Positions 32,052-32,280 of a DNA stretch of 64,000 nucleotides are shown here, in pieces (within the stretch, counting starts at the first letter, position 1; every line of letters begins with the position of its first letter). The DNA is from Chiloscyllium plagiosum (lineage: Eukaryota). A model generated the notes under the pieces. It did not search any database, had not been told where the DNA came from, and saw only the letters and a program-made list of their open reading frames with translations. Location of the stretch: NCBI RefSeq assembly GCF_004010195.1, contig NC_057718.1:42248584-42312583 (forward strand), given 5' to 3'. The translations under genes and the position numbers were made by a program.

Positions 32052-32280
32052 GCCAGCAGGATGCCATTCTTGCTACCCTACAGAGTTGCCAATTTCTATG
32101 TGGGTGGGATGAGTGACTGCAGTTGCACTTTCACACCCACCAACAGCCTGACCCCATTTCACAGGCTGCCCATACGACAGTGACGAATGCAATGGGCCCA
32201 TGAGAAGACCTTTAATAACTCACTGGCGACTTTGTCATTCATGAGTTATTAGGTCTTTCTCACTCATGGAATAAACTGGC
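32052..32280. other. Island of five consecutive hairpins (unclassified structured element)
   Basis: AGCAGGA/TCTTGCT; GTGGGTG/CACCCAC; CAGCCTG/CAGGCTG; GCCCAT/ATGGGC; long stem with TAATAACTCA/TGAGTTATTA; possible closing pair GCCAG/CTGGC. Confidence 0.7.

Follow-up and report, generated by a model that had tools for sequence, protein, structure and literature searches.

A single long hairpin in a GC-rich, single-copy island of Chiloscyllium plagiosum DNA: possible fossil of an ancient DNA element at the left end of a slowly diverging block

In a 64,000-nucleotide stretch of Chiloscyllium plagiosum DNA (the window), a single-copy patch (the island) with sharp composition borders was found to hold one inverted repeat that is probably real, to abut the tail of a retroposon and to lie in a block of lowered divergence among sharks. 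Our leading but tentative reading (probability roughly 0.37; this and all other gradings of readings were set by judgement and not computed) is that of a fossil of an ancient nonautonomous DNA element in a constrained noncoding block, with the hairpin as a by-product at the level of DNA. The wider view that the island acts as DNA and that its hairpin is incidental, in which this fossil and a local origin of the hairpin are taken jointly, we hold to be likely. An earlier note had described an island of five back-to-back hairpins at 32052-32280, either a multibranch RNA or a low-copy relic of an ancient DNA element kept as regulatory sequence. Of these interpretations the relic is compatible with the present results (sharp GC borders, imperfect TIR, single copy, and lowered block divergence), whereas the multibranch RNA is not supported by them; the stems are present and the stretch folds well, but it contains one real hairpin and is not an island of five. 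The features are listed below, with a strand where one was assigned.

31997-32052, plus strand: 3' tail, now decayed, of a non-LTR retroposon present in very many copies, with a (GTT)n end, from contig depth and alignment breakpoints.
32052-32290: the island, a GC-richer single-copy patch, from GC in 40-nt bins and single-copy depth.
32052-33129: block of lowered divergence, with the island at its left end.
32055-32074: H1, a 7-pair stem at chance level, outside the preferred closing stem.
32084-32095: left arm of a 12-bp inverted repeat, imperfect (10/12), around H2 to H5; possible TIR.
32100-32197: H2, H3, and H4, stems of 6 to 7 pairs, jointly not significant.
32198-32269: H5, an inverted repeat of 72 nt (z, -6.84/-7.30).
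32270-32291, plus strand: AATAAA (32270-75), CA (32286-87), and TTGT (32288-91), by direct reading of the sequence.
32273-32284: right arm of the same 12-bp repeat, pairing with 32084-32095.

GC content was 0.40 to 0.57 in the 40-nt bins from 32060 to 32299 and 0.23 to 0.30 in the neighbors on either side, and the island ranked highest in GC among 160 windows of 229 nt from nonrepeated DNA at 17 to 42 kb. The GC-richer patch of the earlier note is confirmed and has sharp borders. The retained CpGs also ascribed to it are not, the island having 3 CpGs at an observed/expected ratio of 0.23 versus 0.20 in the whole window. Remains of LINEs and SINEs were abundant in the window. None of the 297 stop-to-stop open reading frames scanned (out of 436 of at least 42 amino acids; the scan took in all 225 at 17 to 50 kb and 72 of the 211 others) gave a Pfam match above the cut-off, the three weak matches all lying below it. 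A rough splice scan of the locus gave no convincing exon, and the locus has the character of intronic or intergenic DNA. That the patch is a small coding or noncoding exon with incidental stems we find hardly credible: it is GC rich and slow and has splice-like acceptors on the plus strand (32084 and 32165) and donors on the minus strand (32223, 32152, and 32140) when scored with home-made matrices, but no overlapping acceptor-donor pair combined two scores above 6 with an open frame, the three open reading frames over the patch were without a Pfam match, and stops were present in 6 of 6 frames.

Several other features of the window were recorded. A GC-richer stretch at about 37370-37720 resembles a relic of the DeuSINE/SacSINE1 type with its tail, and a MITE-like element with long inverted ends, matching itself within the window, lies at about 42250-42940. 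On the minus strand, 39477-39710 is a lysine-rich open frame of 78 codons in unique DNA without a Pfam match, possibly the fossil of a transposon protein. On the plus strand, 28390-28605 gave a weak Pfam match to Mpv17/PMP22 (E = 6e-4; 20.3 bits versus a cut-off of 27) that does not look exon-like and is probably spurious.

The 229 nt of 32052-32280 folded with minimum free energies (MFE) of -78.7 kcal/mol (plus strand) and -89.5 kcal/mol (minus strand). In the comparison with dinucleotide shuffles that the earlier note had proposed, they folded better than 200 of 200 shuffles on both strands, with z-scores of -4.74 (plus-strand RNA), -4.54 (minus-strand RNA), and -4.23 (DNA) and 0 of 200 shuffles as good in each case. 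Among 390 windows of 229 nt in nonrepeated DNA (8 shuffles per window, pooled standard deviation), the island had the lowest z (-4.65; runner-up, -3.67). Far stronger fold-backs than the island were seen in the 230-nt windows starting at 4486, 23231, 26566, 27486, 41401, and 60146 (MFE, -88 to -132 kcal/mol), all in repeated DNA. The coordinates of the five stems were borne out (H1, 32055-61:32068-74; H2, 32100-06:32134-40; H3, 32144-50:32162-68; H4, 32168-73:32192-97; H5, 32198-32269), and H3, H4, and H5 do stand back to back, but H1 and H2 are separated by 25 nt. As a unit, the five hairpins did not hold: H5 alone had z-scores of -6.84/-7.30 and H1 to H4 together of -0.94/-0.11, with 29 and 98 of 200 shuffles folding equally well. 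For H2 to H4 z was -1.71/-1.62 (equaled by 11 and 9 of 200 shuffles), and for the H1 region (32051-32098) it was -0.97/+0.23. The folding signal is that of a single hairpin, H5, and the other four stems are at chance level; here, a good folding z-score for a whole region arose from one hairpin. The 229-nt fold contained 5 G-U pairs on the plus strand and 7 on the minus strand, so that a strand bias was absent.

The closure of the whole structure by GCCAG and CTGGC that had been suggested amounted to only 3 pairs in the MFE fold, competes with H1, and gave way in the ensemble with flanks to 32088-95:32273-80 (probability 0.75 for 4 pairs on the plus strand and 0.95 for 8 pairs on the minus strand). 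This stem belongs to the imperfect 12-bp repeat 32084-32095:32273-32284, the preferred closing helix in both ensembles with flanks, which leaves H1 outside. On the minus strand, the helix probabilities of the closing stem and of H2 to H5 were all at least 0.9. With a score of 7.0, the 12-bp repeat ranked near the bottom of the 29 inverted matches that reached at least 7 in 550 nt.

Contigs of four public runs were aligned to 31560-33960 at 80% likeness, the relatives compared (organisms A to D) being about 98% identical to the window. The island had single-copy depth in runs X5, X13, and X15 and in the runs of organisms A, B, and C at this likeness; a small excess of depth in bin 32208-32288 in the three runs was within the range of other bins. 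No second island locus was found among the longest pieces listed for these three DNA runs, a search at 80% likeness that had 407 shorter pieces outside its scope and that older copies would escape. Within the window, blastn and nhmmer found no second copy, as the earlier note had stated. At 18778-18839, three 10- to 11-mers common to the island lie within 62 nt in a different order; this segment (local fold z, -1.68) was rejected as a relative, as it is not collinear, 10 of 300 shuffles give such clusters, and the alignment is not significant.

In organism C, listed substitutions numbered 11 in the 1,078 nt of the block 32052-33129 (1.0%) versus 35 in the 1,245 nt outside it (2.8%) (P = 0.0014; 0.023 after correction for the scan and 0.046 on the assumption that the block holds all 7 differences of that contig that were not listed). 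In organism B, the figures were at most 12 in 1,006 nt (≤1.2%) versus 46 in 1,397 nt (3.3%); the branch leading to the window genome is common to both comparisons, which are therefore not independent. Within the block, organism C had 2 substitutions in the 229 nt of the island and 9 in the adjacent 849 nt (P = 0.58); conservation of the island does not exceed that of the remaining block, and relative to just the outer flanks its lower divergence was marginal (P = 0.059). H5 had 1 change in 72 nt. Organism C has three changes within the island or beside it, of which two preserve pairing on the plus strand, namely, C32069>T, which retains a G-U pair in H1, and T32285>C just outside the right arm, which turns an adjoining G-T into G-C; G32269>A breaks the basal pair of H5. 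No indels within the island were listed for organism B or C. Farther into the block, 32632-32989 consists of 358 nt of AT-rich unique DNA with 0 listed substitutions to organism C and is a better candidate for a conserved element than the island. At 33369, organisms B and C have 8 extra bases, which places a deletion on the lineage of the window genome.

The arms of H5 form about 24 Watson-Crick pairs in three segments, separated by one 5-nt and one 2-nt bulge, with 0 G-U pairs and 0 mismatches in the paired segments and an inner loop of 17 to 19 nt. Among the gapped inverted repeats of some 50 kb of nonrepeated DNA, H5 ranked first (score, 31), the reverse-only and complement-only controls peaking at 26 and 31, respectively. 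Locally shuffled copies reached this score in 19 of 300 cases with plain scoring and in 2 of 300 with GC weighting, giving a window-wide P of 0.007 to 0.06; H5 is probably real, although not overwhelmingly so, chance being still conceivable in a large scan. The probability of 0 substitutions in 48 paired sites was 0.006 at 10% divergence, and the outcome observed, arms that differ by two indels and 0 substitutions, would arise by neutral decay of a perfect repeat in at most 0.8% of cases (substitutions to indels, 10:1). Rather than a new RNA gene, H5 seems to be an old inverted repeat of the DNA, placed where a slowly evolving region begins.

H5 may instead have arisen locally in unique noncoding DNA that is part of the constrained block, without a function of its own, through a template switch (an inverted copy of 10 to 30 bp), through fortuitous extension of such a core, or through chance alone. 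Replication template switches make perfect hairpins in a single event, and more than 6,000 have been described in primates, according to the available portions of bioRxiv 10.1101/2023.04.19.537475, PMC8794818, and PMC5453318. The single copy, the pure Watson-Crick stem, the lack of extra constraint on H5 in organism C, the 2 to 19 of 300 window-wide chance, and a complement-only control equal to the plain score all argue for such an origin, which we nevertheless consider rather doubtful, since two indels without a substitution are improbable by neutral decay and several switches or a chance extension would be needed. A local origin also leaves unexplained the sharply bounded GC patch and the position of the window's best hairpin inside it.

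At the left border, the bin 31965-32045 had a summed contig depth of 300 to 690 in the DNA runs versus 5 to 9 elsewhere, and many contigs matched 31997-32052 at about 80 to 85% and broke off at 32041-32053. The earlier statement that a tail is lacking does not hold, because 31997-32052 represents a retroposon 3' tail, and since its alignments stop at 32041-32053, G32052 is part of it. Judged from these breakpoints, the left border of the island is the end of the tail. We take the tail to be of the L2/DeuSINE type; its upstream body is not recognizable, and a good second copy is absent from the window. The island lies 3' of the tail and is therefore not the head or body of a SINE. SINE tails of this sort occur in sharks, and the 56 nt left of the island resemble the SacSINE1-like shark SINE/L2-type tails in the available text of PMC2746220 in their high copy number, 3'-tail nature, and short terminal repeat.

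At the right border, AATAAA follows directly upon H5, CA and then T-rich DNA lie downstream, and TTGT at 32288-91 repeats 32047-50, so that 32270-32291 is possibly a poly(A) site or an LTR-like right end. The downstream T fraction of this AATAAA (0.525) was the highest of 19 plus-strand AATAAA motifs at 31128-41448. The segment 32051-32287 begins with TG, ends with CA and is flanked by TTGT on both sides, the left copy lying within the tail repeat; given the AATAAA, 33 of 3,080 random border pairs (about 1%) had TG and CA ends with a 4-bp direct repeat. It is decidedly unlikely, in our view, that 32051-32287 is a short old solo LTR (TG at 32051, CA at 32286-87, and a TTGT duplication) that entered the retroposon tail at its end, H5 then being a stem of the R region just ahead of the poly(A) signal, or that the 3' end of a plus-strand transcript lies here. 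A solo LTR would account for a patch that starts exactly where the tail ends, and, for either proposal, the AATAAA stands 11 nt ahead of CA and is followed by T-rich DNA. Nevertheless, TTGT and TG on the left lie inside the (GTT)n of the tail, and any AATAAA can be expected to precede GT-rich DNA; the two signs are thus not independent, and several border models were tried. Direct reading showed no TATA box inside, and siblings would be expected of an LTR that postdates the tail, of which none were seen among the pieces listed (80% likeness; runs X5, X13, and X15). Against a 3' end, low divergence runs about 840 nt past the AATAAA.

No Rfam 15 family reached the gathering threshold in the window, a search that the earlier note had called for, and E values up to 10 yielded five chance-level matches in 31700-32700, one of them, CRISPR-DR58 (E = 9.7), in the island. 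With four stems at chance level, strand bias absent, and Rfam empty, a multibranch RNA of five hairpins is not supported. The reported lack of Pol III boxes agrees with ARAGORN, which found 0 tRNA genes, and with the absence of an Rfam tRNA match; a tRNA-derived SINE head was discarded on the same two results. HDV-like, hammerhead, H/ACA, SECIS, and IRE elements did not fit in a by-eye comparison with their motifs, in agreement with Rfam.

The pre-miRNA dimensions claimed for the last stem fit loosely as to size, H5 registers being 56 to 68 nt, but not as to stem and apical motif. Canonical pri-miRNAs, in the available portion of PMC9856966, have a stem of 35 ± 1 bp and a stable lower stem with fewer than 4 mismatches; H5 differs in having about 24 pairs, 6 to 9 of 13 lower-stem positions paired in 14 registers, apical UGU/GUG in 0 of 14, and flanks engaged in other stems. 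It is like them in that a basal UG (1 of 14 registers) and CNNC at +16 to +18 (8 of 14) occur together in one register, on the plus strand (32202/32267; UG at -14, CNNC at +16). In the main register, the 5-nt bulge lies within the duplex. The H5 arm motifs were absent from the bamboo-shark liver miRNA table in the supplement of PMC3789328 and from seven supplements of PMC6048248 (epaulette-shark brain), both searched with positive controls; the two lists are partial, and the full catalogue of the latter study (Table_3), outside this scope, could alter the result.

Run X20 (organism D), taken as RNA by guess only, gave a single contig of 161 nt, which covered 32153-32289 and showed 2 differences, a depth of 3.6, and 12 unaligned letters at each end, its ends coinciding with the donor-like site at 32152 on the minus strand and the region behind the AATAAA. 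Two duplicate read pairs from one 137-nt fragment with adapter read-through would give the same symmetry and a predicted depth of 3.63, and the contig was discarded as evidence of expression because such a single duplicated library fragment explains it.

A structured RNA of the shark lineage, either a suboptimal pre-miRNA (plus strand, about 32202-32267) or a minus-strand five-way junction (closing stem and H2 to H5) at the 5' end of a noncoding transcript, is unlikely. It would fit the best fold of 390 windows, the minus-strand helices at 0.9 or above, the one register with UG and CNNC, the two of three organism C changes that keep plus-strand pairing, and the lack of listed organism C changes in 32203-32262; it is opposed by H1 to H4 being not significant, by a lack of G-U pairs in H5, by the change at 32269, by the stem and apical differences from pri-miRNAs noted above, by Rfam matches at chance level only, and by the two partial shark miRNA lists. 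Very unlikely is the version in which, on the minus strand, the closing stem 32273-80:32088-95 and H5, H4, H3, and H2 would form a coaxially stacked five-way junction in the capped first exon of a spliced shark-specific noncoding RNA (start at about 32289, donor at 32152 or 32140), a transposon fossil exapted and absent from Rfam.

As for a transposon, the possible TIR (10 of 12 positions matched) scored at chance level. hAT-type elements make an 8-bp target-site duplication; none flanks the island, the only 8-mer near-repeat (32069-76/32276-83) overlapping the right arm. An 11-base terminal motif of the hAT type occurred twice in the island with 2 mismatches and 10 times in the window versus 16.4 expected, and no transposon paper was among the matches listed in a literature search for it. 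Viral and metagenome contigs gave 0 matches to the long exact hairpin patterns; of at least 243 loci obtained with relaxed patterns (121, 120, and 2), none aligned beyond the motif, the best alignment (E = 0.025) lying outside the island, and blastn against phages found nothing. Among the 80 metagenome loci listed (L001 to L080), 22 had 10-bp arms exactly 12 nt apart, a spacing far commoner than any other; this may reflect a recurring operator or recombination site of microbes and has no relation to the island. Literature searches with arm 12- to 13-mers and on hairpins in Eulor/UCON and in shark conserved elements yielded nothing on this element. None of the families for which membership could be checked includes the island.

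The fossil reading is favored by the sharp GC borders, strand-neutral z-scores (-4.7 for plus, -4.5 for minus, and -4.2 for DNA), closure of H2 to H5 by an inverted repeat in both ensembles, a block at about one-third of the flank divergence in organisms B and C, and the lack of a Pfam match above the cut-off, including all 225 open reading frames at 17 to 50 kb. Counted against it are the lack of a second copy at 80% likeness among the pieces listed, a TIR at chance level without a TSD, and an island (2/229) no more conserved than the adjacent block (9/849). Its weak point is that an old fossil should carry substitutions in H5 unless selected (P = 0.006).

On this fossil reading, for which we infer the transposon origin and the order of events, an element of about 200 to 240 bp would have carried short imperfect TIRs (32084-95 and 32273-84) and H5 as an internal palindrome, its age being too great for siblings to be retained at 80% identity. 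The relic would persist as the left end of a weakly constrained noncoding block of about 1 kb, most likely an enhancer-type element acting as double-stranded DNA (factor-binding sequence), and the hairpin would be inherited from the architecture of the element instead of being a folded RNA. The short retroposon tail would have inserted later at the left edge or already have lain there. A DNA-level reading is suggested because the hairpin is strand neutral and purely Watson-Crick, the GC patch is bounded and single copy, and it sits at the edge of a slow block; the enhancer function is inferred only from the lowered divergence and the lack of coding signs.

On the likely readings, the locus is of little importance, an inverted repeat in a modestly constrained noncoding block being common in vertebrate genomes. 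In the fossil or cis-regulatory case, it would add to the candidate exapted repeats or cis-regulatory elements known from sharks; the slow genomes of these fishes are useful for classifying ancient repeats. A structured RNA or de novo miRNA, if proved by covariation and expression, would carry greater weight, because few have been described in cartilaginous fishes.

Eulor elements have a hairpin character. Hairpins go unmentioned in the available portion of PMC5753468, in which a library consensus together with wide conservation defines Eulor and UCON and ancient unclassified repeats are reported to concentrate in conserved regions; animal Cryptons have no terminal repeats or diagnostic termini, according to the accessible part of PMC3212892. 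A tyrosine-recombinase frame, which would mark a Crypton, was not among the Pfam results above the cut-off for the 297 open reading frames scanned. Compared with template-switch hairpins and de novo miRNA stems, as far as they are presented in the parts available of PMC5453318, PMC8794818, and bioRxiv 10.1101/2023.04.19.537475, H5 is likewise single copy, purely Watson-Crick, of pre-miRNA size, and in noncoding DNA, but the arms there are perfect, whereas those of H5 have two bulges. From Eulor, UCON, MER12x-13x, and the classified nonautonomous hAT, Mariner, and Crypton members in the same portion of PMC5753468, the island differs in that no paralogue was found and that its conservation is known among three close sharks only; it resembles them in being short, low-copy, noncoding, slowly evolving DNA that is hard to classify.
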